Of a stretch of 36,738 nt of DNA, positions 2,657 to 32,943 are shown piece after piece. The first letter of the stretch is position 1, and every line of letters begins with the position of its first letter. Origin of the DNA: a virus (Duplodnaviria > Caudoviricetes); IMG/VR virus record IMGVR_UViG_3300020336_000022, positions 1-36,738 of that record. One strand, 5' to 3'. A program made the position numbers and the translations under genes. The notes below the pieces were generated by a model. That model saw only the letters and a list, made by a program, of their open reading frames with translations. It was not told where the DNA came from and ran no database searches.

Positions 2657-2672
2657 TATATACCCCTTATAG
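2657..2672 (+). promoter_or_regulatory. Putative phage-RNAP promoter TATATACCCCTTATAG, copy 1, upstream of nrdJ
   Basis: Intergenic; exact copies at 32862-32877(+) and 32928-32943(-); ends in TATAG like T7-family promoters. Confidence 0.7.
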
Positions 2673-10666: not shown

Positions 10667-12505
10667 ATGGCAATACCATATCAGCCAAATTATAAGTTAC
10701 AACCTAAAACAGGATTTAGATATTCTGCACAACCTTTTGTACCAGCACAACAGCCAATTAACGCTCCACCTCCTCTTGGATTAGATGGAAGTGCTGCTGC
10801 TCCTCCACCTGTTATGGGTGGTCAACAAGGTCCAGCTTATGCTAACGATCCTTTTGGTGATGGTAATAATTTTCAACCAAACAATCAAGCACGTATTAAT
10901 CAAGCACAGTCTTATGGTTACACAAAAGGTGTTCAAAACCCTGCAGGTATTGTAAGGGGTATTCCTCTTGTTGGTAATTTTATGGCTGACTCTTTAAGCA
11001 TGGGTCAAGATTCTAAATATACATATGGTAATCCAGGAACTTATGATAACGCTGGTAATGTGTTTTCTGATGACGGAAGGGCATATGATCCAATTACAGG
11101 AAAACCCGCACAATCTTATTCTAGGATGACAGGAGAAAACTCTTGGTTAGGTAATGCTTATGGTATAGGAACTGAGGAAGGGATTGGTGGTCCAAGTAGT
11201 AGTTATGGTAAATTAAGGGGTGCTGGAGAAAATGTTATTAGTTCTGCATTAGGTAGTTATGATAACTCTGTTTATAAACAAATGGATATGAATCCAGGAT
11301 TAACATTACAAGGTGCAAGGCAGTCTCGTAGAATGGGGGCAAACTCTCCTATTCAAAACTTTGCTAATACTCTTACAGAAAACACTCTTAATGCTAGAAA
11401 TGATGAGTTTGGTAATATACCAGATGGTCCTGTATGGGGCACAAGACCTGGAGATTATGTTCAATCAGATCAAGGGCCGTTAATGGTTAGTGATGGTGGT
11501 CAACTTAAAGGACCAAACGGTACAACAGTTATGATTGACGGTGTTAGTTTTGTTAATGCTAATGTTACTAAACCAGAAACACTTACTAGAGAGCAGCGGG
11601 TAACCTTAGCAGAACGTACTAACCCTAACCCTAATACAATAGCTGGATGGCATAGTGGAAATCAAAGAGGTACTTGTTTTCCTGAGGGAACTCAAATCTC
11701 TATGGCTAATGACACAACAAAGAATATCGAAGATATCCAAGTTGGTGATAAAGTGTTGGCCTTTGGTGAAGACAGTAAGATTGTTGAAGATGAAGTCACT
11801 AAGGTACACGAACATACCCTTAATGAGTGTTGTTCAGATTCTCTTGTTAAAGTCACACTGTCAAATGATAAAGAGTTTACGGTAACATCTAATCACCCAT
11901 TCTATATGCCTGAGCATAATGGATTTAAATGGATTGGTCTGTTTGAAAAAGGTGAGCTAGTAATGACTAAAGATGGGATGATGTATCCTGTATCTTCTAT
12001 TGAAACCTTAGACACTAATGGACAAACAGTGTATAACTTTGAAGTTAAAGACACACATACTTATATTGCTGAAGATCTTAGAGTCCACAACGGTAGTGGT
12101 GACGATAGTGCTGGTAACGATAATGTAGATAGAAGTAATCCAAATGCAATGGCATCTAGAGAAAAATCATTTGCTGAATCTAAAGGATATGGTTCTACAG
12201 GGAGACCTGATGATACTGGTAAATCTATGGATCAATTTGCAAGAGACGCTAGTGCAGGAATGTTTAGCTCTGAGCAACGTGCTGAAGCTGATGCACTAAG
12301 TCAACAAATGGGATCTGGTAGAACTGATGCGGAAATAAGCGCGGGTGCTGGTGATTATGTAAGTTCAGACCCATCTCCATTTTCTAAAGGTGGTGCAGAT
12401 ACACCTGTTACTGATTTAACAGTTGGAGACATGCTAGGTGAAGGTGTAAACACAACCATGTCAGGTCCTTTAAGTGTAACAAATTTCAACAATACAGTAA
12501 AATAA
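10667..12505 (+). CDS. Putative ejection protein containing a Hint (intein-like) domain
   Basis: Low-complexity Gly/Pro/Asn flanks around CFPEGT...IEDIQVGDKV...TSNHPF...VYNFEVKDTHTYIAEDLRVHN. Confidence 0.8.
   Translation: MAIPYQPNYKLQPKTGFRYSAQPFVPAQQPINAPPPLGLDGSAAAPPPVMGGQQGPAYANDPFGDGNNFQPNNQARINQAQSYGYTKGVQNPAGIVRGIPLVGNFMADSLSMGQDSKYTYGNPGTYDNAGNVFSDDGRAYDPITGKPAQSYSRMTGENSWLGNAYGIGTEEGIGGPSSSYGKLRGAGENVISSALGSYDNSVYKQMDMNPGLTLQGARQSRRMGANSPIQNFANTLTENTLNARNDEFGNIPDGPVWGTRPGDYVQSDQGPLMVSDGGQLKGPNGTTVMIDGVSFVNANVTKPETLTREQRVTLAERTNPNPNTIAGWHSGNQRGTCFPEGTQISMANDTTKNIEDIQVGDKVLAFGEDSKIVEDEVTKVHEHTLNECCSDSLVKVTLSNDKEFTVTSNHPFYMPEHNGFKWIGLFEKGELVMTKDGMMYPVSSIETLDTNGQTVYNFEVKDTHTYIAEDLRVHNGSGDDSAGNDNVDRSNPNAMASREKSFAESKGYGSTGRPDDTGKSMDQFARDASAGMFSSEQRAEADALSQQMGSGRTDAEISAGAGDYVSSDPSPFSKGGADTPVTDLTVGDMLGEGVNTTMSGPLSVTNFNNTVK
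11675..12091 (+). other. Hint domain (139 aa; Cys1 ... His-Asn; next residue Gly)
   Basis: Block A CFPEGT, block B TSNHPF, block F/G VYNFEV...VHN; no homing endonuclease. Confidence 0.9.
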
Positions 12506-12516
12506 GGAGGTAAGTA

Positions 12517-15500
12517 ATGAAGCTTAAAAGTTATACTAATAAAGATCGTTACGGCAACATGACCTCCTTTGAGTTTTATGAAGATTCAAATGTACCTATG
12601 ATGGAAGGTATTCCTGATCATCCAGGGAACCCTAAGGGAACTGACACAGTACCCGCATGGCTAACCCCTGGTGAGTTTGTAATGAACGCTGAAGCTACTC
12701 GTATGTTTGAACCACAGATAGAGCAAATGAACAACGCTGGTCGTGCTATGCAAACACAACAAGGGGGTACAATCCCTGAGTACGCTGCACATGGTGGACC
12801 TGTGTATATGAACCAAGGCGGTAGTTGGTTAGACAGCTTGTTAGGTATGTTTGCTAATAAAGTTTTACCAGAAATGCCAGATGCAACCCAAGGTGCAATA
12901 CCACCATCAGACACTAGTCGTGATGAACGTGTTGCTGCTTTGATTGAAGCTGCAAAAACCGATGGTCCAACTAGACCAGATCCAACTATGTCTAATAAGA
13001 TGTATATGGATTTTCTTAAAGACAAAGAAGGGTTTCGTAATGAAGCTTATCTTGACTCTGCAGGTGTCCCAACAATTGGTTATGGGTTTACTGAAGGTGT
13101 TCAGATGGGTGACACAATGGATGAGAAGACTGCTAATGAAAGACTTCTTAAAGAAATGGCAAAGACTGATCAAGATTATAATAAATTAGTTACTGCTGAC
13201 CTTAATCCTAACCAACAGGCTGCTGTTAAATCACTACTGTATAACATTGGTGGTCCACAGTTTGCTAATAGTAAAGCTCGTGCGGCTCTTAATGCGGGTG
13301 ACTTTGAGTCCTTTAAGAAAGAAGCTGCAGAGTTTCGTATGGCTGATGGTAAGGTAATCCCAGGATTAGAAAACCGTAGGCGTGATGAGCTAGAGTTGTT
13401 CTTTAAACCTTATAAAGCTGATAGACCATCTGTAGAAGATTCACCTAGTGCGATGATACCTGCAGAAGACATACTTGCTCGTCAACAAGAAGTTCGTAGG
13501 TTACAAAAAGATGGAACATATGAAGCCACATCTGATGTTGGTGACCCATTCCCACCTGAACCACCTGCTACTGATCCTGATGCAGAAATGATTGCTGCTC
13601 AAGCAGCTACTGCAAGAGATGGAACATATAATAGTGGTGACAATGACATGGGAGGGTTGGGTAGTGATACCCCTGAGAATGCTGCAAGAGCTAGGTTGTT
13701 GAGAGAACAACAGCGGATGCAACAGGGTCAAGTCCCTCCAATGACAACCCCTCCTCCAATGGATCTAGAAGGTGGTGTAGCAGACGGTGTACCTCCAGTC
13801 GATGATCGTGGTGCTCTTCAAAAGTTTGGAGAGTCTGGTGGACTTATGGGTTTTCTTGATAGAAATATTGTTCAACCATACGAGGAAGGCCAAGAGCGTA
13901 AAAGAATCTTAAGCGATCAAGACCGTATGCAGCAAGGGCAAGTTCCTGATTTTAAAGAACCCCCTAAAGTATCTACGTCTTTTGATAAAGATAATTTACC
14001 AGACAATCTTGTTCTTAATCCAGAAACAGGAAAGGTAGAGTTTAAAGATCCATCACAAGCTCCTGCACTTGGTTTACAAAATGCTATAGATGGCCCGATG
14101 GGAGCACAAGCAAAAGCTTTTCAATTAAGAACAGCAAAAGAAGATATGCAAAAAGCTATTGATAATGGTTATGGCCCAGGTGATGCTATTTTTGATAATT
14201 CTTATGCTCGTGTTCAAGAACTTGAAGGTGCAGATGAAAAACTTGCTAGTCTTCAAGATAAAAAGAAACTTATCTTTACAGATGGTGAACTAAAAGTTAC
14301 AGATGCAGAGATTGAAAAGAAAACAATTCAAGCAGAAAAATTAGTTGACCTTGGTTTATCTGATGCAGCTAAAAAAGTTGAGCAAGAGGTTAAAGATCTT
14401 AAAGATAAAAAAGGAAGACTAGAAACACAAAGCAAAGAACTTACAGTACCTCCTACAGATGCTCCTCCTAAATCTGACCCATCTCCGTTTGCTAAGGGTG
14501 GTGAAGATACACCTATAACTGATTTAACAAAAACAGTTACACCTAAAGATATTGCTGATAATAAACAGTTTCCTGATGATGGTTCTGTTTCTAAAAACAC
14601 AACACCGGAAGCTGCAACAAAAGCAGGTGAAGGAGCACCACCAGAACAGATAAACAAAGCTGAGTCTTTCTTATCAGGTATCTTTGGTGATCTCTTTGAC
14701 AAGGGTGAGCTTAAACGTATGGCTATTATGTATGTTGGTGGTCGTATGTTAGGTGGTTCTCATAGTGGATCTCTTAACTTTGCCGCTAAACAATATGTTA
14801 AGCGTGTTGATGCTAAAGTTAGCGCACATGATAAGTATGTTAAGCAGTTAACAAAAGATGGTCTTTATAAACCGTCATCTATTGCTAAGTATAAAAGAAC
14901 TAAAAACTTAGCAGATCTTGAAAAGAAAGATGCTACGTATTCAGCAACTGGCGGTACTTCTATAACTAAATTAATACCTGTAAAAGGTGGTGGTTTTAAA
15001 GAAACAACCGTTGTCCCTGTAAAAAATAGTATTACAAATGAAATTTCTTATAGGGCAGTCGATGGTACTATTCTTCCTGCAGAGGTTATTGCTAATGCAA
15101 GGGATGCTAGACCAGAACTTAAAGATGGAACTGACGAGTACTATGCAAGGCGTGACCGTGTTTATAATCAAATGGAAAAAAGCTTTGCAGAAACACGTGA
15201 TAACGATGGTAACTTTGAGTTAGACGGTAAAACTAAAAAGTACTATACTAATGTTGGACCACGTAAAGCAGCTAGGGAGTTCTTTGCATGGGCTGAAAGT
15301 GTAGGTCAAGATCCTGAAAGTACTCAATCTATGGATATTTTAACAATGGCTCAAGAGCAAATGATTGAAGAGGCTAAAGGTAAAAAGTTTAGACCTGGAA
15401 GTCTTACTCCATATCTAGAGTATCAAATGATTAGAGAAGAAACTACTGCTCCAGAACTTTTCTTACTTAATCCAAAAGAGATGGCAAAAGGAAAGCCACC

Positions 15501-15747
15501 TAAGATGATACGCATGGATCAAATGCAGTCTCTATATCAAAACATAGACCATCTTATCTATAGTCGAGGAAACAAGACTACAAGAAATGCGATGTTTGCT
15601 AAGGGTGTTCAAAACTGGCAATCCCTATCTCAAAGTGAAAGAGATGATTATGATAAAGGTGCTGAAAAAGATGTTGGCATAAATGGATTTTATAATTTTA
15701 TGCAAGACACTATGGCAGCTGTAAAAGCAAAAGAACCTAAAACATAA
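12517..15747 (+). CDS. Ejection protein with virion-associated GH24 lysozyme domain (~13000-13404)
   Basis: EGFRNEAYLDSAGVPTIGYG...LNPNQQAAVKSLLYNIG...GLENRRRDE; N-terminal GTDTVPAWLTPGEFV motif; no Cys; RBS AAGGAGG. Confidence 0.85.
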   Translation: MKLKSYTNKDRYGNMTSFEFYEDSNVPMMEGIPDHPGNPKGTDTVPAWLTPGEFVMNAEATRMFEPQIEQMNNAGRAMQTQQGGTIPEYAAHGGPVYMNQGGSWLDSLLGMFANKVLPEMPDATQGAIPPSDTSRDERVAALIEAAKTDGPTRPDPTMSNKMYMDFLKDKEGFRNEAYLDSAGVPTIGYGFTEGVQMGDTMDEKTANERLLKEMAKTDQDYNKLVTADLNPNQQAAVKSLLYNIGGPQFANSKARAALNAGDFESFKKEAAEFRMADGKVIPGLENRRRDELELFFKPYKADRPSVEDSPSAMIPAEDILARQQEVRRLQKDGTYEATSDVGDPFPPEPPATDPDAEMIAAQAATARDGTYNSGDNDMGGLGSDTPENAARARLLREQQRMQQGQVPPMTTPPPMDLEGGVADGVPPVDDRGALQKFGESGGLMGFLDRNIVQPYEEGQERKRILSDQDRMQQGQVPDFKEPPKVSTSFDKDNLPDNLVLNPETGKVEFKDPSQAPALGLQNAIDGPMGAQAKAFQLRTAKEDMQKAIDNGYGPGDAIFDNSYARVQELEGADEKLASLQDKKKLIFTDGELKVTDAEIEKKTIQAEKLVDLGLSDAAKKVEQEVKDLKDKKGRLETQSKELTVPPTDAPPKSDPSPFAKGGEDTPITDLTKTVTPKDIADNKQFPDDGSVSKNTTPEAATKAGEGAPPEQINKAESFLSGIFGDLFDKGELKRMAIMYVGGRMLGGSHSGSLNFAAKQYVKRVDAKVSAHDKYVKQLTKDGLYKPSSIAKYKRTKNLADLEKKDATYSATGGTSITKLIPVKGGGFKETTVVPVKNSITNEISYRAVDGTILPAEVIANARDARPELKDGTDEYYARRDRVYNQMEKSFAETRDNDGNFELDGKTKKYYTNVGPRKAAREFFAWAESVGQDPESTQSMDILTMAQEQMIEEAKGKKFRPGSLTPYLEYQMIREETTAPELFLLNPKEMAKGKPPKMIRMDQMQSLYQNIDHLIYSRGNKTTRNAMFAKGVQNWQSLSQSERDDYDKGAEKDVGINGFYNFMQDTMAAVKAKEPKT

Positions 15748-15758
15748 GGAGTATTATT

Positions 15759-18700
15759 ATGCTTGATGTATCGGATTATGAAAACCTATTAAGTGGTGAT
15801 TCAAATCAACTAGTAGGGGCAAAGAACAAGACCACGTTCTTGGATGCAGATACTATCCGTGAAGAAGGCAATGATCTAGATGTACGTTTCGGGGGTATAG
15901 ATGCTCCTGAAACGTATAAAACATGGCAAGGTTTAAGTGCTTCACAAGATGTTGGGGCAGTTCAAACTGCTGAACAGGTTCAAGCTTTAGCTAATCAACT
16001 TGGTTATACTGAAGTGCGTAGACGGTTTAATCCAGATGGTACTCCAGAAATGGATGCCACTAAGACTCGTCAAATGGGTGACCTTGTTCATCCAGAAACT
16101 GGTAAATCTTTTTCTCGTGAGCTTGCTATCAATGGTGTTGTAGATATTGCTGAGGGTTACGATCCAGGTAATATGTTATTAACATCTAAAAGGTTTAGTA
16201 ACTTTTTAAAAGGCCCTAGAGCAGATCAGACTGACCCTGATTATCAACCAAATGAGTTTGACAAAGCTCGTATGATGATACAAGAAGGTGTCAATGAAGA
16301 GCGTAGGTTTGCTCAACAATTTAAAAGAGCACAGAAGTTTTCTGGTGAGATTGGTATGCTTGATGAGCAGATCAAAATGGTTGAAGATGGACTATCTGAA
16401 ATGCGGGAAAGTGGAGAAGAGCCTACAGATCAAGACCTTGTAGGTCTCCAAATGCTTAAGAAACAAAGGGCAGCTATTAACGAAGCTGCTACACCTGAAC
16501 TTGATTACTATGATCGTGATGATGTAACTGGTCGTGCAAATAACCCTATGACTGTTGCTTGGGAAACTGGGTGGAACAGTGTGGCTCAATCCGCTTATGC
16601 TCTTGCAGATATGCTTGGAGAAAAAATAGATTGGGAAGCTGCAGAAAACTTTGGTGAAGCAGGTATGCGTAGGGCACAAGCCCGAATGGGTGACAATGGA
16701 AAGATTATTACAGACTACAAAGATGTAGATGGATTCCTGACAGCTGTTGAGTTCTTAGGTACTAATGCTGCAATGTCTTTACCATATATGGCTGCGTCTG
16801 GTGGTGCTGCTTTACTTTCAGGTGTTACTGGAGGGGCAAGTATTCTTTTACCAGTGTCTATGTATACTGGAAACACATGGGCAGAGATGGAAGGTGATAA
16901 TAAGAGTGCTACTGTTGCAATTGCAGCAGGTACAATTCAAGCTGTTTTAGATAGGGTTGGTATTCAATTAATATTTAGACAAGGTATTACTCCTAAAGCT
17001 ATGTATAAGGATGCTTTAACTGCATTGACATCTAAAGGTATGGGTAAAGAGGCTGCTGAAAAACTCCTTCTTACAGCAACACGTAAAGAACTAGCAGAGT
17101 TTGCTGGTGATGCAGCTAAAGTAGCTCGTCAACAAATTACAGGTAAGGCTATCTTTAAAGACCTTGCAACACGTGGGTTAATTGGTGGCACTGGTGAAGG
17201 TGTAACTGAAGCCATGCAAGAAGCTACTGCTTACCTTGGAGCAACCCTTGGTTCTGATAAGGTCTTTGATTATAATGAACTTACTGATCGAATGATTGCT
17301 GCTTCAATAGCTGGTACTTCTTTAGGTACAGCCTTCTCAGTTCCTGGAGCCGCAGTTAATGCTGGTGCTTGGGCTGATGTGGCAGTACGTCAGTTACCTG
17401 CAGAAGCCAAACGACTTTCTGAAGAAGGAGCACAGGCTGAAGCAGAGCGTACTCGGAATGGTCAAATAGCTTATAATGAAGCTAAAGCTGCTGAAGAATA
17501 TAGAAGAGCTAAAGATGAAGGGTATGATCCTAATAACCCCGATATGTTTACAGCACAAGAAATAGAAGCTATTGCAGAGCAAGCTCGTATAGATGGTAGT
17601 CGTGTTAAAACTATTGAAGAAAATCTACAAGATCTTGAAAAAGAAATAGCTGAACGTAAAGAAGCTGATCCTAATTATAAACCTGCAGAGTTAAATGATC
17701 GAACAGAAGCTCATAGAAAAGCAAAGTCTGAAAGAACTCTTGGGGAAACCATTGGTGAAATGTTTGCCTCGGCTCCTGCACTTTGGAGAAGGTCTATTGA
17801 TTATATTATTCCTGCTGAAGTAAAAAGAATATCTGCTTCTGCTAGAATACTAGCCGCTCAGTTTGGTGGTGGTCTTCAAAAGATATTTAGTAGTGCTGAT
17901 TTTGAAATGGCTAAACGTAATCGTGTTTCTGTATATAGAAATATGTTACAGAACCCTGCTGATTTTTGGAATGTTATGGGGAATGGTAGAGTTTTAAGTC
18001 AAAAAGAAATAGATACTTTAAGTGATGATCTTTACCGTAGACTTGAGCCTGTTATAAATGGTACAGGACCTGTGGATATCTCAGGTCTTAATCAAGCACA
18101 ACAGGCAGCTGTTACTGCTTTATCTCTTCAAATGGATACAGTTTCTGAGGCTATGTATGATGATCAAATAAAAGCAGGTGGTGAACTTAACCAACGTAAA
18201 CATTATCTTCATAGATTTAAAACACTAAACAAAGTTGCTGTTCAAAAGAACCGTAATGAGTTTGAAGCTTTATTAGTAAAGACATATCCGCAGATTAGTC
18301 CAGGAGATGCTAAGATTTTAGTAGATGAGATACTTAACTCTGATACTATTACTGACATTGATGAGGCTGGTGCTGTTGCAGGTATTGAGTTTTTAAAAGG
18401 ATTTGATGTCACTAAAGGTGGTATTGTTCCTGGATCCCATAGAAAAAATACACTTGGTATGTCTGAAAAGAAAGGCGATGATGGTGAACTTGTGTTCAAA
18501 GATTTTATGGAACGGGATATCTATAAAAACATACAGCACTCTATTAAGTCTGCTGCTAGGTTTACAGCACACAGAGATTACATTGGTAAGAATGGTGAGA
18601 AGGTTGCGTTTCTTTTAGATAAGATGCAAGCAGAGGGTGTTCCCGCTGCAGAGGTCAATCGAATTGCTAAGCTTATGCAGGATTATCTTAACGCTGAGTC

Positions 18701-20069
18701 AGGGAACTACAAACGTCCTACATCAGACATGGGTAAGATGCTTGTTGGTATCCAGAAAAACCTTATGTTCCTTACAACTATTGGAACACTAGGCATGGCT
18801 GCTGTGTCATCTCTTCCAGAACTTGCATTGTCCTCTCGTGCTTTAACTGCTGAACAGATCTTTAAAAGAAAAGGTTCATCTTCAAATGACACAAGCCTAC
18901 AAAACTTTGGTAAAGAACTAGCCTCTGGATTAAGTGCTGCAATAAGACAAACAGGTTCTGTTATAACACGTAGAGAACAAGCCTTGGGTAATATTGATCC
19001 ATCTACAGGTGTTCCTTTTGCTAGTAGATCTAGAGGTCAAGACTTACGTAGAGAGCTAGGTTATGATGCGTGGGAGCTTGGTGCAGCTACAGTGACTGGT
19101 GTTTCAGAAATGAATCCATCACATCAAAGATTCTATGAGATCTTCTTTAAGGCTACTGGTCTTACTGGCTTTACTAACATGACTCGTTCTATGAGAGCAG
19201 CTATATCTGCTGATTATATTTTTGATCATGTTAATATTATTGTTGATCAAAGAACAAGTGGTGAAGTAAAAACCAATGAGGTTCAACAGTCAGAAGAAGC
19301 TTTAAGAAACATTGGTATTAATGTTGATGACATGGCTATGTTATTTACTGAATCAAGAAAAAGAGATGCTGTGGGTGATACTAGAACACAAGAACAAATA
19401 CAAGCTGACGATAAACTTATGCAAGACAATTTAAGAATTGGATCTATGAACTTTATTGATGATGCTATAGCACTCCCAGGGGTGGCTAACAGACCATTGA
19501 TCTATCAAGACCCAAGGTTCTTTTTGTTTACACAGTTCCAGGGATTCATTGCTACATTTACAGCAAACCATATTCCTAAACTATGGGGTGAGTATGTAAA
19601 GCGTGGTACTCCAGCAATGAAGTATAATGCGTTTGCTATCATGGCTACTATGATTATGATGGGCTTTGCCTCTCAGTATCTAAAGGATCTCATTAAGTAT
19701 GGTGGTTTGGATGAAGACGAATACAAGACAGGTAAGAACCCTCACCTAGAGACTGAAGAGTATATCCAACGTGGTATCCGTTCATCAGGTCTACTTGGTG
19801 TTGGTGAGCGTGTGCTTGATCAGTTCTTCCCTATATACGAACAACGTTCTGGTAATGCTGGAGAGTGGTTGTGGAATACAACAACAGGTGAAGCACCTGC
19901 TACTGGTACATTAAAACGTATTGGTAGAGCAATCGGTAAGACAGCAACAGGAGACTTTGCTGGTGGTGCACAAGAAGGTAGTAGGTTAATCCCTGCCCTC
20001 GGTGTTACTGGTGGATTCTCAAGAGTTGGAGACTTTGCGCCAGACTCATGGAACTATAAAGGAGAATAA
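15759..20069 (+). CDS. Large ejection protein (T7 gp16-like position) with N-terminal staphylococcal-nuclease-like domain
   Basis: LDADTI, VRFGGIDAPE, DxxxTR, RELAINGV at the N-terminus; amphipathic Gly/Ala helices; C-terminal FTQFQGF...LKDLIK...GLLG; no Cys in 1436 aa. Confidence 0.75.
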   Translation: MLDVSDYENLLSGDSNQLVGAKNKTTFLDADTIREEGNDLDVRFGGIDAPETYKTWQGLSASQDVGAVQTAEQVQALANQLGYTEVRRRFNPDGTPEMDATKTRQMGDLVHPETGKSFSRELAINGVVDIAEGYDPGNMLLTSKRFSNFLKGPRADQTDPDYQPNEFDKARMMIQEGVNEERRFAQQFKRAQKFSGEIGMLDEQIKMVEDGLSEMRESGEEPTDQDLVGLQMLKKQRAAINEAATPELDYYDRDDVTGRANNPMTVAWETGWNSVAQSAYALADMLGEKIDWEAAENFGEAGMRRAQARMGDNGKIITDYKDVDGFLTAVEFLGTNAAMSLPYMAASGGAALLSGVTGGASILLPVSMYTGNTWAEMEGDNKSATVAIAAGTIQAVLDRVGIQLIFRQGITPKAMYKDALTALTSKGMGKEAAEKLLLTATRKELAEFAGDAAKVARQQITGKAIFKDLATRGLIGGTGEGVTEAMQEATAYLGATLGSDKVFDYNELTDRMIAASIAGTSLGTAFSVPGAAVNAGAWADVAVRQLPAEAKRLSEEGAQAEAERTRNGQIAYNEAKAAEEYRRAKDEGYDPNNPDMFTAQEIEAIAEQARIDGSRVKTIEENLQDLEKEIAERKEADPNYKPAELNDRTEAHRKAKSERTLGETIGEMFASAPALWRRSIDYIIPAEVKRISASARILAAQFGGGLQKIFSSADFEMAKRNRVSVYRNMLQNPADFWNVMGNGRVLSQKEIDTLSDDLYRRLEPVINGTGPVDISGLNQAQQAAVTALSLQMDTVSEAMYDDQIKAGGELNQRKHYLHRFKTLNKVAVQKNRNEFEALLVKTYPQISPGDAKILVDEILNSDTITDIDEAGAVAGIEFLKGFDVTKGGIVPGSHRKNTLGMSEKKGDDGELVFKDFMERDIYKNIQHSIKSAARFTAHRDYIGKNGEKVAFLLDKMQAEGVPAAEVNRIAKLMQDYLNAESGNYKRPTSDMGKMLVGIQKNLMFLTTIGTLGMAAVSSLPELALSSRALTAEQIFKRKGSSSNDTSLQNFGKELASGLSAAIRQTGSVITRREQALGNIDPSTGVPFASRSRGQDLRRELGYDAWELGAATVTGVSEMNPSHQRFYEIFFKATGLTGFTNMTRSMRAAISADYIFDHVNIIVDQRTSGEVKTNEVQQSEEALRNIGINVDDMAMLFTESRKRDAVGDTRTQEQIQADDKLMQDNLRIGSMNFIDDAIALPGVANRPLIYQDPRFFLFTQFQGFIATFTANHIPKLWGEYVKRGTPAMKYNAFAIMATMIMMGFASQYLKDLIKYGGLDEDEYKTGKNPHLETEEYIQRGIRSSGLLGVGERVLDQFFPIYEQRSGNAGEWLWNTTTGEAPATGTLKRIGRAIGKTATGDFAGGAQEGSRLIPALGVTGGFSRVGDFAPDSWNYKGE

Positions 20070-20070
20070 T

Positions 20071-23000
20071 ATGGCAGGTAAATCTAATGTAACAGGCCTA
20101 GATACTGGTACAGTACTACCTTCAGAACAATTAGAGTTGGCTTTAGGATTTGAAAAGGTGTTAGCGGGGGATACAGCCCCGCCAGCAGCCCCTGAAGCCC
20201 CTGAGGTTACTACCCCACCAGTAGAACCTGTAGCGCCTGTCACAGAAGCTCCTGTGGAGACTGTTCCAGAAGCCTTGCTTAGTACGGTTGACGAAACAGC
20301 GGGGGTTGTAGAAGAGGTGACTGAGGGTGAGCCTGAGGTGTTTGGTCCTCCAGATCCTAGGTTTACAAAACCCTCTATGGCTCAAGAGGCTAAAGGAGAA
20401 AGCGGCCCTAGCACATACTGGTCAGCGTTTGAAGCACAATCAGACCCTGATGCTGCTGGATCTTCTAGTGCTATGCCTAACGGTGACATTGAGGGGAGAG
20501 CAGCAAGACTAGCTGAAGATGTTGCATCAGGTGCTATATACCTTGGCGGTACTACAGCTGCTGCAGATCAAGACAATAAACTTAACTCTTTGTTAAACAA
20601 TACCAACGCTCTTGACAATGGTAATAATGACTCTGGTAAACCAAGAATGACCCCATTGTTTGCTAAAGTATTAACGTATGTCACTGAAGATGCCTTGTCG
20701 CAAACTTCTTTTGGTAAGAATGAAGACGGTCAGTTTGATCCGATGGATCAGGTTACTGATGATCAACTCATGGGCACTGGCGCTTTCTCTAAAGCTGATG
20801 GTAACCGTAGGCTTGGTCGAGAAATACACAGGGCACATCAAAGAATTATTAATAAGCAGCAAAAGAAACCCACTGATGCTTATACTGATCTGTCTCCTGA
20901 TGATGCTTTCTTACTGGGTGATATAGCAAAAGAATTATACTACCAAGGGATGAACCGACAGTACGGTGAGAATGTTTTTCTTAATAGACAAACACCAGAC
21001 TCTACTGTTAAAGGTGAACAAGTTGTGTTTGAAGTAACCGACACTGGTGCTTCTCTTTTAAGGCAGGGTAATACACTTCGTAAAAAACTACTACCCAAAG
21101 ACCATGTTCGCCCATTAAAGACACCACCAGTAGATGGTATGTTGGGTGGTGAGATAGGTAGAATAACAAGAAGTATAACACAGCGAGTCTTTGTTCCTGG
21201 GGATGCTGTAAATGCTGCAGAACTTAATGAGGCTATGAGAAACTATTCTCAAGTAGCTCATGTGGTTGACCCTCAACGTCTAAAGATTTTGTTAGCTACT
21301 GCTATGGCAGCATTAAGTTCTTCAAGTAATCCTTATAGATCCATCAATCATATTGGTGAAGATAAAATGAACGAGTTTGTTGCTAGACAAAAGATTGCTC
21401 AGTCTCAAGGTCGTAGAATTATCCCTGATCCAAATGACAGTATGAGGGCGATTGAGGATGATTTAGCTCAAGCGTTGTACGGTATATGCCTTGACCGAAA
21501 AGGTGCAAACTATCTTACATTTTATTTGCAAGGTGCAACAGGTCGTATTGCTGTACAACAAACAAACTTTGATCCGACAACTAAAAAGTCTGTTCGGTTT
21601 GTTACTCGTAGCGCAACCCCTACAATGATTAACAAAGGCTCTAGGTTTGATAAAGCTCTTAGACAAATGTATGCTATGGCTTTAGTAAAGGATGCAGATG
21701 CCTTAGTTCCTTCGGCTAGAGAAAAAGCTCTTACAAGTGCAGAAGAATCACTTTACAACAAAGGTGTTAGACTTCGTACTGCTTTAGCTGCAATCTCTGA
21801 TAGTCAAGTTGAAAAAGTAGCTGATGCTATTGCTGCTGGTATGCCTTTGAGTGATCCTAATTTTCCACAGATGCCAACATTACAACTTGATCCTAATAAT
21901 GAATCAGATGCAACTCTTATGGCAGAGATTCAAAAGAAAGGTGAAGATGGTCAAGCTTACATTGATGGGCTTATAGACTTTGCTAATTACAAAGAGGCTA
22001 TGGATGCAAATGAAGGAGCAGGTAGACCATACCATACATACTTTAATGCGTACATAGATGGTAAAACTAATGGTCTTGCTGGTAATGGTATGCAGCTTGG
22101 TGATATGGACACTGCCAAAAGAACTGGTGTAATACGTAGTGGGACCAGTCCATTCTTTCTTGATGATGATCAAGACATACGGGATGTACTTGAAAATACC
22201 CTTATAAGACTATCAGCTAATGAAGAGTATAAGGCTTTTTCAAGAAGTGGGTGGCCTGAAGTATATGAAATAGCTAAGATTGTGTATGGTAATAGGGGTT
22301 TAAATAAAACCACATCTATGACATTTGGTTATGGAAAAAATGTTGAAGGTTTTAAACAAGACATTGAAGAGTTTATGTTGATTATGCAGGGTGAGGGGAC
22401 CCCTGAAGGTCAACGCCTTAATGAGCTAATGTCAATATTTGATAGTAAAAATTCAAGTAAGGGAGATTTAATTGACGCTATACATTCACATTATGACAAT
22501 GCGTTAAGAGAAGTACTTGGTGAAAACACTATGCCATCTCGTAATATTATGAGAGGTGCTGCGTTCTTACACTCAATAGCAAATGAGTTGTTTACTATTA
22601 ATGGGCCAACAGGTTCCAAGCTTAACATGGGTGGGATGATGTCCACTGGTGCTGCTATAGGAAAAGCTACATCAATAAAAATCTTTGTTAATAAAAAAGG
22701 TAAGTATAATATTTGGTACGGGTCTGGTGAAAACGCTAGTCTTAGTAACCTAGCTCTTAGACCTTTTCAAGATAAAGAAGGAAGAGTTTATCAAACAGTT
22801 GAACATGCTTATCAAACCCTTAAGTCTGGTAAGTTTGATGAAGAAACTTATAACAAACCTTGGAAGGCAGGTGTAAAATTTAAAGGAAAACGTGTTAATG
22901 AAGAAATAAGTATTGGTCTTATGACTAAACTTATACAAGCAAGTCTTGATCAGAACCCTGATGCTATGACAGCGTTACAAGAAACTCGTGGAAAAGAAAT

Positions 23001-23928
23001 AACACACAATGAAGATAATACTATCTGGAATAAAGAGTTTCCTAGAATCCTTATGCAAATTAGAGATGGTTCTCCTTTTTATCAAAAGCAAACAACACCA
23101 AAGTCTCAAGTGTACGGTGAAGAGGCTACGTCTGCAGCCCCAAAGTTTAGGACTGACCCTATAACAGGTGAACAAACAACTGAAGTAGGTGGTACATCTT
23201 GGGGTGCTGCAATACCTATCCCTGTTCAATCAATTGATGCTGCAACAGTAGCAAGATTAGCATCTGATAAGGGTGGTTATTGGAAAGACATTAAAAGAAA
23301 GTCACAGAATCCTAAGCAACAACCGTATGTGTTTCCTATCTATGATGCATTTAAAATGGATGCTGCTTCGTATGATGCTGTTCTTAAAGATGTAAACAAA
23401 GCATGGGTAGATATTAATTTTGAGTGGTCTTACCTAAAGCAAACACAGAACTCTTTAAAGCAATTGAGACAATCCTTAAATGAAAAGTTTAAGAATCCAA
23501 CTCAAGTGTTGCAAGGTAATGAAAAAGCTATGATGAATTATCTTTTTTCAAATTATATAACTAAGTCAGGTAACCCCGTGTTAAATATTAACAATAAACT
23601 GGGACAAGTTATGTACCCTGTTCCTAAAGGGGATGATATTTTTGGAGAAGTTAAATCCTTGCAATCAGATATGAAAAAACATGGGTTTACTAAATTTACT
23701 GTAATTGGTGGTGGAGGTAATGAAATTATTAATCCAAACACAGAATTAACTGTAGAAGATTTAAAAATATTTATAGATGCTCTTGAAAGAAAAATAAATC
23801 TTGATCGTAGATTAAACAGTTTGATATCTAAAACTGATGGATTGAGGTCTAAACTAGAGTCAAAGATTATAGCTAACATGAATAGCAATAACCCTGACTT
23901 AGCAGTCCTTCAATACTATTCACATTAA
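20071..23928 (+). CDS. Putative virion-encapsidated single-subunit RNA polymerase (N4 vRNAP-like, ~1285 aa) with NADAR-like insertion
   Basis: ATG 20071 after AAGGAG; ATGR motif, motif A YIDGKTNG, motif B RGLNKTTSMTFGYG (Rx3Kx7YG), IPVQSIDA, motif C PIYDAF, all in canonical order. Confidence 0.85.
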   Translation: MAGKSNVTGLDTGTVLPSEQLELALGFEKVLAGDTAPPAAPEAPEVTTPPVEPVAPVTEAPVETVPEALLSTVDETAGVVEEVTEGEPEVFGPPDPRFTKPSMAQEAKGESGPSTYWSAFEAQSDPDAAGSSSAMPNGDIEGRAARLAEDVASGAIYLGGTTAAADQDNKLNSLLNNTNALDNGNNDSGKPRMTPLFAKVLTYVTEDALSQTSFGKNEDGQFDPMDQVTDDQLMGTGAFSKADGNRRLGREIHRAHQRIINKQQKKPTDAYTDLSPDDAFLLGDIAKELYYQGMNRQYGENVFLNRQTPDSTVKGEQVVFEVTDTGASLLRQGNTLRKKLLPKDHVRPLKTPPVDGMLGGEIGRITRSITQRVFVPGDAVNAAELNEAMRNYSQVAHVVDPQRLKILLATAMAALSSSSNPYRSINHIGEDKMNEFVARQKIAQSQGRRIIPDPNDSMRAIEDDLAQALYGICLDRKGANYLTFYLQGATGRIAVQQTNFDPTTKKSVRFVTRSATPTMINKGSRFDKALRQMYAMALVKDADALVPSAREKALTSAEESLYNKGVRLRTALAAISDSQVEKVADAIAAGMPLSDPNFPQMPTLQLDPNNESDATLMAEIQKKGEDGQAYIDGLIDFANYKEAMDANEGAGRPYHTYFNAYIDGKTNGLAGNGMQLGDMDTAKRTGVIRSGTSPFFLDDDQDIRDVLENTLIRLSANEEYKAFSRSGWPEVYEIAKIVYGNRGLNKTTSMTFGYGKNVEGFKQDIEEFMLIMQGEGTPEGQRLNELMSIFDSKNSSKGDLIDAIHSHYDNALREVLGENTMPSRNIMRGAAFLHSIANELFTINGPTGSKLNMGGMMSTGAAIGKATSIKIFVNKKGKYNIWYGSGENASLSNLALRPFQDKEGRVYQTVEHAYQTLKSGKFDEETYNKPWKAGVKFKGKRVNEEISIGLMTKLIQASLDQNPDAMTALQETRGKEITHNEDNTIWNKEFPRILMQIRDGSPFYQKQTTPKSQVYGEEATSAAPKFRTDPITGEQTTEVGGTSWGAAIPIPVQSIDAATVARLASDKGGYWKDIKRKSQNPKQQPYVFPIYDAFKMDAASYDAVLKDVNKAWVDINFEWSYLKQTQNSLKQLRQSLNEKFKNPTQVLQGNEKAMMNYLFSNYITKSGNPVLNINNKLGQVMYPVPKGDDIFGEVKSLQSDMKKHGFTKFTVIGGGGNEIINPNTELTVEDLKIFIDALERKINLDRRLNSLISKTDGLRSKLESKIIANMNSNNPDLAVLQYYSH
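22705..23070 (+). other. NADAR (YbiA-like) domain inserted within the RNAP
   Basis: LSNLALRPF...YQTVEHAYQTLK...LMTKLIQASLDQNP...LQET...ITH..D..W..EFPRILMQIRD. Confidence 0.8.
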
Positions 23929-24236: not shown

Positions 24237-26555
24237 TTAGGCAAAGAAGTAATCAGACTCATAGATCTGTGTTACGTCTAGGTTGCCTAGCTCTGGTTGC
24301 TCTACGTCAAGGTTAGTAGCATCAGTGATGATGTTTTGTTGTATCAAGTCGTAGTAATTATCTTTATCATACATATCGATAAAGCTTTGTTTAGTCCTCG
24401 CTAGTAGTGCTTCGACATCACATGCATGAGTGCTAAAGGAATCATGTACTGCTCCGAAATCACCATTCCATTCCTCAATAACCAATGCCATATGACTGGC
24501 ATCCTGACTGTGAATGTAGTTAGGGCTGACACCACACATAAATCCGCGAATGTCTGGGGTCTTCGTAGGTACTCTTGCCACATGGTTCACTCCTTTGTGT
24601 CCTTTAGACTCAGACTTATAGCCACTTATAGTACCTCTACATTTTCGTGTAGCTGTAGTATAGTTCTGGTAGATTACTTTAAACCCTGAGGGTGTTACCC
24701 ATGAGAGGTCGCTTCTACCATTGCCATGTATCAGTTTACTTTTGTATGATCTAAGAAGTACTGTGAGTGTGTTGAGGTGTTCAATCTCCTCATCAGTTTT
24801 ATCTTTCTTTGTGTACAATTCTTTCTGATCCTTGACCAGTTGTTTGTATTCTGGTCCAGCAGGTTCATCTTGATCATTGTACTTTAAGTATTCACCTATC
24901 TCATACTGTGCTAGTCTTTGCAGGTATGCCATAGTATGCAGGGGTCCTGGACATACAAGGTTGATTGCTTTGATTAGCAGCTTAGCTAGTTTATCACAAT
25001 CATCTTGTGTTATCCCATACTCTATGTGAAAGTCCTCTGCTTTACAATCAAAGAACATATTCTCAGCGATCTTCTTTGCACCTGCTGAGTATGCTCTTGT
25101 CATACTACCACGTTTAGATATAGCTTTCCTAATATGTTTCATTGGCATCTGATCAAGGATGTCTTTAAGTCTCTCATCAGTTGTCAAATGATATAACTGT
25201 TTAGCAGTCTGAACATAGAAGTCATGTTGTATTTCTACTGGTATTAGCCCTACAAGCCTCCCTGTCTGGCTGTCTTTAGAAATAGCACCTAGATGCTGCC
25301 AACCATTGTTAGACCCGTCTATGGGCACTGGAAGGTGACTAACGTGGATTCTATTATCTTTGACTGCTCTTTGGTAATCAAACCACTCAAAGCAACAGGA
25401 TAGGAATGACACAGATTTCTCTGCTATATCTGTTACAATACCTTGCCTACCCATTTCGACAATAACTTCCATGTTATCGTTAGTCCACCTTACCCTGTCC
25501 TCAAGGGTAAACTTATCTACGCTTATAGACTCTAGCTTTTCTTCTTCTAGGTATCTTGCATAGTCAGCTTCACACCAGTCAGGTATCTCATCTATGTTAT
25601 AACTCTGGTTGAATGTATTGGCTGTGTGTACAGCTAACCAGAAGAGACCGTCCTCTGTCATAGGTTTACCCCTAGCAAAGGTCATCATACCTCTGGCTAG
25701 ATCAGACCCTTGATAGTTTAGGAAGGACTCTGAGTAGTATAACCTACCCCTATAGTCTGCTTGCATGAACTGATAGAAGACATCGTGATCATAGAGCAGC
25801 TTAGCTTTAGTAGTAATGAAACCCCATTCTACCAGCTTGCTTCTACGTTTCATTTCTTTAGCATCATTATCATCTATTGGTGTTGACGACACAAATGCAT
25901 CTTTGTTTTCTATAAGAGTATCATACACACGCTGGTTGATCCTCCATCCAGTGCGTTGTAGTTTGTTTACTGAAGTAACCCAAGGGGTTCCAATCATAGG
26001 TTCAAACCTTGCGTTGTCCTCTTCTGTCCACTCTTTGATTACAGGTTCACCGTCCTGTTGTATGATCTTTGATATTCTATCTGGTCTTTCTAACACAGTA
26101 TGTGTCAAAGATATCCTCATCATTGCCTCTGGTATATCGGCAAGGTCTATCCATTTAGCTGTAGCTGATACAATATAGCTAGTGTCCCTTGTCTTCGGGT
26201 AGTATATGTCTATGTATCCACAGTTATAGAACGCTTCTATAAAGAGATCACCCAACCTCACATGCATGTTCCAGGGTAACCCAGGGGGTTCCCTTTTGAT
26301 TACACGTGCTATACGTTGACCTATTGCTGTAGATACAGCTGTCAACTGTGCAGTCCCTGCAGGACTATCTGAGGTATCGTAGGTGAATCTCATTTGTATT
26401 GTTTGGAAAGCCACGTTTATTAGTCGTGGCATCTCCTCTTTATATTCTTTATACAATCTCAGAAGTACACCACCTGAGTTTGCCTTAGGGTTATTTGGAT
26501 TAACCCTTGAGACCTTATCAATTAGGTACTCTGAGATGTTATCGAATGGATTCAT
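24237..26555 (-). CDS. T7-like single-subunit DNA-directed RNA polymerase
   Basis: DYRGRLY, PVPIDGSNNGWQH (motif A), KRGSMTRAYS (motif B), WVTPSGF, SPNYIHSQDASH, AVHDSF (motif C). Confidence 0.97.
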   Translation of the reverse strand: MNPFDNISEYLIDKVSRVNPNNPKANSGGVLLRLYKEYKEEMPRLINVAFQTIQMRFTYDTSDSPAGTAQLTAVSTAIGQRIARVIKREPPGLPWNMHVRLGDLFIEAFYNCGYIDIYYPKTRDTSYIVSATAKWIDLADIPEAMMRISLTHTVLERPDRISKIIQQDGEPVIKEWTEEDNARFEPMIGTPWVTSVNKLQRTGWRINQRVYDTLIENKDAFVSSTPIDDNDAKEMKRRSKLVEWGFITTKAKLLYDHDVFYQFMQADYRGRLYYSESFLNYQGSDLARGMMTFARGKPMTEDGLFWLAVHTANTFNQSYNIDEIPDWCEADYARYLEEEKLESISVDKFTLEDRVRWTNDNMEVIVEMGRQGIVTDIAEKSVSFLSCCFEWFDYQRAVKDNRIHVSHLPVPIDGSNNGWQHLGAISKDSQTGRLVGLIPVEIQHDFYVQTAKQLYHLTTDERLKDILDQMPMKHIRKAISKRGSMTRAYSAGAKKIAENMFFDCKAEDFHIEYGITQDDCDKLAKLLIKAINLVCPGPLHTMAYLQRLAQYEIGEYLKYNDQDEPAGPEYKQLVKDQKELYTKKDKTDEEIEHLNTLTVLLRSYKSKLIHGNGRSDLSWVTPSGFKVIYQNYTTATRKCRGTISGYKSESKGHKGVNHVARVPTKTPDIRGFMCGVSPNYIHSQDASHMALVIEEWNGDFGAVHDSFSTHACDVEALLARTKQSFIDMYDKDNYYDLIQQNIITDATNLDVEQPELGNLDVTQIYESDYFFA

Positions 26556-31415: not shown

Positions 31416-31725
31416 AAGCTTTTCTTTCTAGGTAGTGTTTTTCTTTTACTGACCTGATTGTGTGACAATTAGCGCAACGTATGTCGCACTTACGAGCCTC
31501 TTTGATAATGTTCTTGATACTACAAGAAGCCATTCTATGAGGCGTATATATTTTATCTGATGGATCTCTGTGATCCCATTGAAGAGCGTAGGGGTTTTCG
31601 TTGTAACCACAATCAATACAACCTTTAGCAATTTTGTATCGGTCTAGTATTTTTCTACGTCTTCGTATCTTTAGTATTTGTTTTTTGCTGCAAGTCACTT
31701 GTCTTTTCCTTCTGGCATGTCGCAT
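31399..31725 (-). CDS. HNH endonuclease (Zn-binding)
   Basis: CIDCG...WDHRDP...CDIRCANCH; true start may be the GTG at 31698. Confidence 0.85.
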   Translation of the reverse strand: MRHARRKRQVTCSKKQILKIRRRRKILDRYKIAKGCIDCGYNENPYALQWDHRDPSDKIYTPHRMASCSIKNIIKEARKCDIRCANCHTIRSVKEKHYLERKAYEISV

Positions 31726-32861: not shown

Positions 32862-32877
32862 TATATACCCCTTATAG
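32862..32877 (+). promoter_or_regulatory. Putative phage-RNAP promoter, copy 2, pointing at the + strand terS-like gene
   Basis: Exact TATATACCCCTTATAG. Confidence 0.7.
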
Positions 32878-32927: not shown

Positions 32928-32943
32928 CTATAAGGGGTATATA
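32928..32943 (-). promoter_or_regulatory. Putative phage-RNAP promoter, copy 3, pointing at the replication operon
   Basis: CTATAAGGGGTATATA is the exact reverse complement of the motif. Confidence 0.7.

Follow-up and report, generated by a model that had tools for sequence, protein, structure and literature searches.

An intact NADAR-fold domain in a putative virion RNA polymerase, at its predicted specificity-loop tip

What is a NADAR domain, the fold of enzymes that remove ADP-ribose, doing inside a phage RNA polymerase? This question is raised by the marine phage record IMGVR_UViG_3300020336_000022 (36,738 nt; positions 1-36,738, all of it analysed, are hereafter the window), in which an open reading frame (ORF) at 20002..23928 (+) encodes a putative virion RNA polymerase that is 1308 amino acids long when counted from a GTG codon. 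More likely, translation begins with the ATG at 20071 (residue 24), and the Atlas record of the protein begins at this residue. An original prediction, made from the sequence alone, described a block of ~122 amino acids in this protein as a NADAR-like domain placed at the specificity-loop position, and proposed that an injected polymerase would thereby carry its own counter-defence. All the motifs quoted for that block were found in frame, in the segment 22705..23070 (+), i.e., residues 902-1023 of the ORF. Papers are cited here by their PMC accession.

The block is an intact NADAR-fold domain, and we assign it to a compact His-type subfamily. The isolated segment matched Pfam NADAR with an E value of 6.7e-4, which is under the gathering cut-off, and phrog_1017 with an E value of 1.4e-8, and a 38-sequence profile of its family found E. 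coli YbiA (E 8.9e-11) and the P. nicotianae NADAR, PnNADAR (E 0.015). The AlphaFold model of the insert has a predicted local distance difference test score (pLDDT) of 97 and five helices, in keeping with the YbiA-like fold, which has five core helices with small hairpins. The first three Foldseek matches to this model (2b3w, 8bau and 8bat) are all NADAR structures with YbiA as the best, the TM-scores normalized by query being 0.73 for YbiA, 0.65 for PnNADAR and 0.54 for GlNADAR. The proposed NADAR identity was thus borne out by the Pfam and PHROG matches, by the YbiA profile match and by the Foldseek ranking. Alignment to 8bau, in which the equivalent residues were counted by hand from the profile alignment with a 2-residue tag offset, places Glu934 (22801..22803, +) at E43 of the P. 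nicotianae enzyme, Lys941 (22822..22824, +) at K50 and His1002 (23005..23007, +) at the position of E125. Among 154 full-length family domains (161 proteins less 7 that had no full-length match) these residues are kept in 154, 153 and 151 cases, respectively, i.e., in 98-100%. All three positions are catalytic in the P. nicotianae NADAR, where K50 is the phosphate-binding lysine, and a His at the third of them is the phage NADAR state (PMC11543638), as found on the last strand of gp30.3/AdfN (PMC11125620). Of the further ADP-ribose phosphate contacts of PnNADAR, R79 has a basic residue at its position in the insert, and D/W residues lie near 130/133 (Pn D130 and W133), although the profile alignment is weak there. 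The window copy agrees with its family at 39 of the 41 columns that are conserved in at least 80% of the 154 domains. Because the catalytic residues are conserved, we infer that the insert has N-glycohydrolase activity. A degenerate passenger was ruled out by the 39 of 41 conserved columns and by the substitution pattern of the insert given below.

The carrier belongs to a divergent polymerase family, since a profile search of the family against solved polymerases gave no sequence-level match. Furthermore, the whole 1308-amino-acid protein has no Pfam match, hhalign of the family against the other RNA polymerase (RNAP) of the window reached only E 0.073, and no polymerase was matched when two family members were searched by tblastn in 50,697 phage records. 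When residues 215-1308 were modelled with 104 sequences (pLDDT 85; predicted TM-score, pTM, 0.80), the best Foldseek match was the mini virion RNA polymerase (mini-vRNAP) of N4 (E 3.8e-13), and mitochondrial and T7 polymerases also matched. VIA-align superposed the model on T7 RNAP with Z 28.6 (root-mean-square deviation, rmsd, 4.7; 541 aligned) and on N4 mini-vRNAP with Z 24.1 (rmsd 6.2; 691 aligned). At the level of the predicted structure, the T7/N4-type right-hand RNA polymerase fold of the ORF is therefore confirmed. Asp686 of motif A (22057..22059, +), Lys769 and Tyr777 of motif B (22306..22332, +), Asp1115 of motif C (23344..23346, +) and the DxxGR-type Arg R515 show no variation in any of the 121 aligned sequences, and R765 is found in 116 of 121. 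With invariant catalytic residues, a dead polymerase is not supported.

The position of the domain within this fold was then delimited from the two conserved anchors that flank it. The anchor-to-anchor span is 213-232 amino acids in 10 of the 121 aligned proteins and 71-104 in the other 111, and in the window protein it contains the insert and ~83 amino acids of native loop. The matching span in the other RNAP of the window is 66 amino acids, and the anchors of that enzyme align to W727 and P780-D787 of T7 RNAP, a stretch that holds the specificity loop. T7 RNAP has between these anchors a long hairpin like that predicted for the window polymerase, but only ~60 amino acids lie there. Alignment of the DNA with insert-less kin ends at 22698 and restarts at 23085-23091, and the cassette boundaries at the DNA level are at ~22699-23090. 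In the model, DSSP places the outgoing strands of the predicted hairpin at residues 878-895 (22633..22686, +), as 878-884, 890-891 and 894-895 before the NADAR domain, and the returning strands at residues 1030-1043 (23089..23130, +), as 1030-1031, 1034-1035 and 1038-1043 after it. Insert-less kin keep the returning strands, and a two-residue turn connects the strands of the hairpin. The junction has a pLDDT of only ~54, and the assignment to the loop comes from the anchors, the topology and the DSSP spacing, with strand pairing deduced rather than read from a residue-level superposition. The NADAR domain is thus predicted to sit on the specificity-loop hairpin's tip with the native loop retained, so that the specificity-loop position claimed in the original prediction holds insofar as anchors, topology and DSSP agree on it, but the domain is added at the loop tip and does not replace the loop. 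The specificity loop contacts the promoter major groove in both T7 and N4 (PMC4496689, PMC13492108), and in T7 it is oriented to the upstream promoter as well as to the RNA exit, with Met750 at a tip that contributes to the RNA exit tunnel (PMC13614062). As both flanking strands are kept, the polymerase presumably still reads promoters. An assembly artefact was ruled out by independent records that have the insert, again in frame (P0005-P0010, P0022, P0029 and P0124; L073, L074, L076 and L153). A third loop-tip allele (P0015, P0024-P0026 and L003:1253-1310) is ~10 amino acids longer than the tight-turn allele, has flanks as in the NADAR allele, and is possibly a deletion remnant of the latter.

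How widespread is this arrangement? Among 120 listed homologues of the polymerase, of 167 found, the loop-site insert is present in 9 (the window's own cluster included) and, as the word insertion in the original prediction implied, it is absent from the other 111, which include kin at 87-94% identity. The 23-member home clade consists of 8 carriers interleaved with 15 non-carriers. In a 67-row tree, carriers of the domain at the loop site are spread over three distant lineages and those with it at a C-terminal site over four (FastTree trees with several long branches). The identity to the window protein in the domain and in the polymerase, respectively, is 84% and 72% for P0022, 65% and 40% for P0029, and 61% and 28% for P0124, all with the loop site, and 90% and 43% for P0027 and 49% and 32% for P0188, both with the C-terminal site. 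Six pairwise comparisons, each with a non-identical carrier, gave a ratio of non-synonymous to synonymous substitution rates (dN/dS) of ~0.2-0.45 for the insert, which argues that it is under purifying selection. The synonymous distance of the insert is below that of the flanks in 6 of 6 non-identical comparisons (e.g., 0.07 vs 0.35/0.26, 0.38 vs 0.85/1.0 and 0.22 vs 1.14/1.41), the flanks of distant pairs being near saturation. This lower synonymous distance, together with the identities of P0027, implies that the cassette moves sideways, and the NADAR block therefore behaves in these comparisons as a mobile, exchangeable cassette. The GC content of the insert (34.2%; 18% at third codon positions) is inside the downward trend of the gene itself and is uninformative on origin. 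In two C-terminal carriers, the NADAR domain lies nested in (P0027, residues ~1180-1480) or beside (L154:1572-5987) a HExxH zincin-like, peptidase-like insert. In addition, P0056, P0064, P0077 and P0085 carry a different 120-amino-acid insert after motif B, at ~residue 801 of the window protein, which has motifs like those of an ADP-ribosyltransferase (ART) and scores 0.84 in the Atlas against ART-PolyVal or PARP clusters. This resemblance is a lead only, and the polymerase family may carry writers of ADP-ribose as well as erasers.

The gene order bears on whether the polymerase is delivered with the virion. The insert-bearing polymerase is the final gene of the virion block, and it directly follows a large virion-structural-like protein (15759..20069, +; phrog_6958 virion structural protein, E 1.2e-17), a homologue of which precedes the polymerase wherever related loci extend far enough. 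Further upstream, a large lysozyme-bearing protein (12517..15747, +; Pfam Phage_lysozyme, E 4.2e-32) is likely an internal virion protein that would be ejected. On its other side, the insert-bearing polymerase faces a second, conventional T7-like RNAP (24237..26555, -; Pfam RNA_pol, E 7.7e-56), convergent with it and closing the replication block. All 66 viral loci that were examined, a set with some duplicates, have such a convergent polymerase pair. Gene position and the analogy to N4 make it likely that the insert-bearing polymerase is packaged in the virion and injected.

The closest cultured relative found, the Roseobacter podophage CRP-7 (MK613349; PMC6918029), has the same gene order. 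The RNAP of CRP-7 is 38% identical to the second polymerase of the window, and the accessible text of the CRP-7 paper names one polymerase only (PMC6918029). Its gp33 (L070:9860-13567, -), a convergent gene for a protein of 1235 amino acids that is annotated as hypothetical, stands at the place of the insert-bearing gene. By eye it carries motif A/B/C-like strings, with an Arg in place of the motif-B Lys and with no insert between the anchors, and it matches the polymerase family profile weakly (E 0.17-0.38). From these features, gp33 is likely an unrecognised second, virion-type RNA polymerase of a cultured phage.

N4 gp50 and the N4-like vRNAPs share with the window polymerase the single-subunit fold and the late gene position beside ejected proteins (PMC5512222, PMC4496689), and they habitually carry conflict domains, reported as fused peptidase, ART, lysozyme and RNase domains (PMC5512222); relatives of the window polymerase carry zincin-like HExxH and ART-like inserts. 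The two groups differ in size (~3500 amino acids for N4 vRNAP and ~1100-1500 in the window polymerase family), the window polymerase is ~11-13% identical to N4 or T7 in the structural alignments, and it lacks the vRNAP Pfam domains and the fused metallopeptidase of N4-like polyproteins, the HExxH motif being present in some relatives only. Moreover, the passenger here is situated within the predicted promoter-reading loop of the catalytic domain rather than in a linker or a terminal region. AdfN (T4 gp30.3) and the other phage NADARs (PMC11825919) are likewise phage-encoded proteins of NADAR fold, and they share with the insert the catalytic Glu and Lys with a spacing of seven residues, the last-strand His and the absence of a DarG1-type N-terminal extension. 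However, AdfNs are produced after infection as proteins in their own right, while the insert is within a polymerase and belongs to a shorter, separate subfamily. The Phage_30_3 family (PF08010) separates the two, since the insert does not match it at E 0.01 and two NADAR relatives match it weakly, scoring 16.5 and 21.2 bits, below the cut-off of 36. The NADARs of E. coli YbiA and DarG1 have the same fold but a Glu or Asp where the insert has the His; DarG1 is further set apart by its N-terminal extension and its linked darT1 (it is Asp that stands on its last strand), and the insert shows none of these features. No linked DarT toxin was found among the Pfam and PHROG matches of the window.

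The subfamily extends well beyond these polymerases. In total, 673 cluster representatives match it at E ≤0.001, and among the best 150 of them 92 are proteins of >1000 amino acids and 31 are of ≤250. Twenty-four of these 92 large carriers share C-terminal homology with N4 gp50, and in 4 of the 92 the NADAR is located upstream of an N4 polymerase core; P0145, P0206, P0255 and P0256 are such metagenomic N4-type virion RNA polymerases. When 15 large carriers were scanned, MuF_C, LPD3, SLT, SLOG, DUF4326 and virion-protein families were present, and some giant NADAR carriers are without a polymerase match. The occurrence of NADAR in polyvalent proteins, mentioned in the original prediction, was seen in P0143, and the main text of PMC5512222 does not mention NADAR. 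P0129 and P0170 are distant homologues of the virion-type protein at 15759..20069 that carry a NADAR of the same subfamily. Given the many large virion-type carriers and the N4-type vRNAPs, the linkage of NADAR to injected proteins and virion polymerases has arisen repeatedly. What is distinctive here is the position of the NADAR domain inside the predicted promoter-reading loop.

The best reading of these results is that the polymerase serves as a delivery vehicle and the loop tip as a tolerant docking site. The polymerase would be ejected with the phage DNA and be active already in the first minutes of an infection, and the NADAR domain would strip ADP-ribose, most likely DarT1-type guanine marks on phage DNA, as a counter-defence. 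The loop tip would have been chosen for its tolerance of length, as suggested by the range of spans in insert-less members, and the advantage would be that the enzyme arrives early and close to the phage DNA, not that it is specifically coupled to catalysis. We give about an even chance to this proposal as a whole, with DNA as the substrate, namely that a packaged and ejected polymerase brings an ADP-ribose N-glycohydrolase onto phage DNA before phage genes are expressed. T4 AdfN and two unrelated phage NADARs defeat DarTG1 by erasing DarT1 marks during infection, and the His-type AdfN-T4 is fully effective only in its own phage context, possibly because of localisation (PMC11825919). Some NADARs also reverse cytidine ADP-ribosylation (PMC12945103). 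Several observations weigh against the delivery of a DNA-directed eraser: gp30.3 and YbiA fail to rescue DarT1 toxicity in uninfected cells (PMC11125620, PMC11825919); the insert is short and lacks the N-terminal DNA-binding extension of DarG1; the phosphate-binding W89 and R93 of PnNADAR have no evident counterpart in it, as judged from a weak profile alignment; its Pfam and NCBIfam scores are under the curated cut-offs and PADLOC gave no match; and the window polymerase, at ~1300 amino acids, is without the long N- and C-terminal ejection and encapsidation domains of the ~3500-amino-acid N4 enzyme. Furthermore, 4 of the 15 large carriers scanned (P0137, P0141, P0153 and P0160) have a cpYpsA SLOG or a DUF4326 domain that passes the Pfam cut-off or nearly does so, partners that fit a proposal of a soluble ADP-ribose derivative as substrate (PMC9503650).

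Under that proposal, the injected cassette would remove a soluble ADP-ribose derivative, an immune signal or toxic product of TIR/SIR2/Thoeris-type defences, and the polymerase would be purely a vehicle. It was put forward in silico for phage NADARs (PMC9503650), and it agrees with the sharing of polypeptides between the subfamily and cpYpsA/DprA-like SLOG, DUF4326 and DUF7831 domains, as well as with the presence of the domain in many unrelated positions and as a stand-alone protein (the 31 short proteins among the best 150). However, the three phage NADARs tested after that proposal all counter DarTG1 (PMC11825919), and an abundant early protein would probably serve signal removal better than a few injected copies; we regard this explanation as unlikely, but deserving of serious weight. 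A tighter link between site and function was also considered, in which the loop tip was selected to hold the enzyme at the upstream DNA and the RNA exit, where it would clear the template or the nascent RNA. Three lineages with 25-40% polymerase identity share the site, their loop-site domains group together among the 154 sampled (Shimodaira-Hasegawa support 0.89), the T7 loop tip forms part of the RNA exit tunnel (PMC13614062), and DarT-marked DNA blocks transcription in some cases (PMC11825919). But the same domain clade holds the C-terminal carrier P0027, C-terminal carriers occur in four lineages, and the loop tip is length-tolerant anyway, with 111 of the 120 listed homologues lacking the insert. 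We find it improbable that CRP-7-like podophages have a widespread and so far unrecognised family of compact injected RNA polymerases in which the tip of the promoter-specificity loop is a slot for a mobile eraser, as a self-repairing machine that frees its own template or nascent RNA of ADP-ribose ahead of all phage gene expression, and selection of the tip for this role is slightly more doubtful still. The C-terminal, N4-type and polymerase-less carriers, as well as the orientation of the T7 loop given above, argue against a purpose-built placement next to the transcription bubble, the position named in the original prediction. The interpretation in that prediction is supported in part, and its counter-defence role has a precedent in the phage NADARs that erase DarT1 marks.

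The delivery reading depends on injection, and the polymerase could instead be made late, the NADAR domain acting in mid or late infection as AdfN does. The lack of the large terminal domains of N4 would suit such a protein, and DarT1 acts on single-stranded DNA, which is plentiful in replication (PMC11825919). Yet the gene closes a virion block after two large virion-type proteins, a separate T7-like polymerase is present in the replication block of all 66 loci, the other large carriers of the subfamily are virion-type proteins, and a polymerase made only late would have no evident job, so that we leave this option a slim chance. Finally, the domain might be a non-catalytic binder, as a sponge for ADP-ribose or as a host-toxin decoy or inhibitor, in keeping with its truncated fold and with some ADP-ribose-contact residues that are unmatched; PMC11825919 mentions, from cited work, a phage NADAR that acts without enzymatic activity. 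The near-complete conservation of Glu, Lys and His across the 154 domains makes this highly improbable.

Other features of the window lie around this locus. A virion-block protein (10667..12505, +) carries a Hint domain at residues ~335-480 (Pfam PT-HINT, E 1.3e-10), which suggests that the protein may process itself, and a 57-nt direct repeat with 88% identity (12365-12421 and 14473-14529) lies in two adjacent virion-block genes. A 16-base T7-promoter-like motif has 4 matches in the window vs 0.46 expected, at 2657-2672 (+), 32862-32877 (+), 32928-32943 (-) and, with 2 mismatches, 31535-31550 (-). The divergent pair of this motif is near a putative small terminase gene and recurs in 5 related loci, which include carriers and non-carriers of the insert.

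The original prediction knew of no earlier account of such an insertion, and the literature searched, which covers few subscription papers, likewise contained no description of a NADAR domain within a single-subunit polymerase. The accessible text of PMC7824862 has nothing on polymerases, and viral NADARs outside RNA-virus polyproteins are described as typically stand-alone and likely often packaged (PMC9503650). The observation is real, as a variation on the themes of the polyvalent virion polymerase and of the phage NADAR. If the inferences hold, an enzymatic counter-defence against DarTG or against NAD-derived signals would be extended to the moment of injection, and the arrangement, through tethering to the polymerase, would lend itself naturally to testing why phage NADARs of the His type depend on phage context. 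A controlled comparison is ready to hand in the near-identical polymerases, some with the cassette, at either of two sites, and some lacking it. The T7-type specificity loop seems to tolerate a whole enzyme at its tip, which would be useful for polymerase engineering, and a large marine phage group with a cultured member likely has an overlooked second polymerase.

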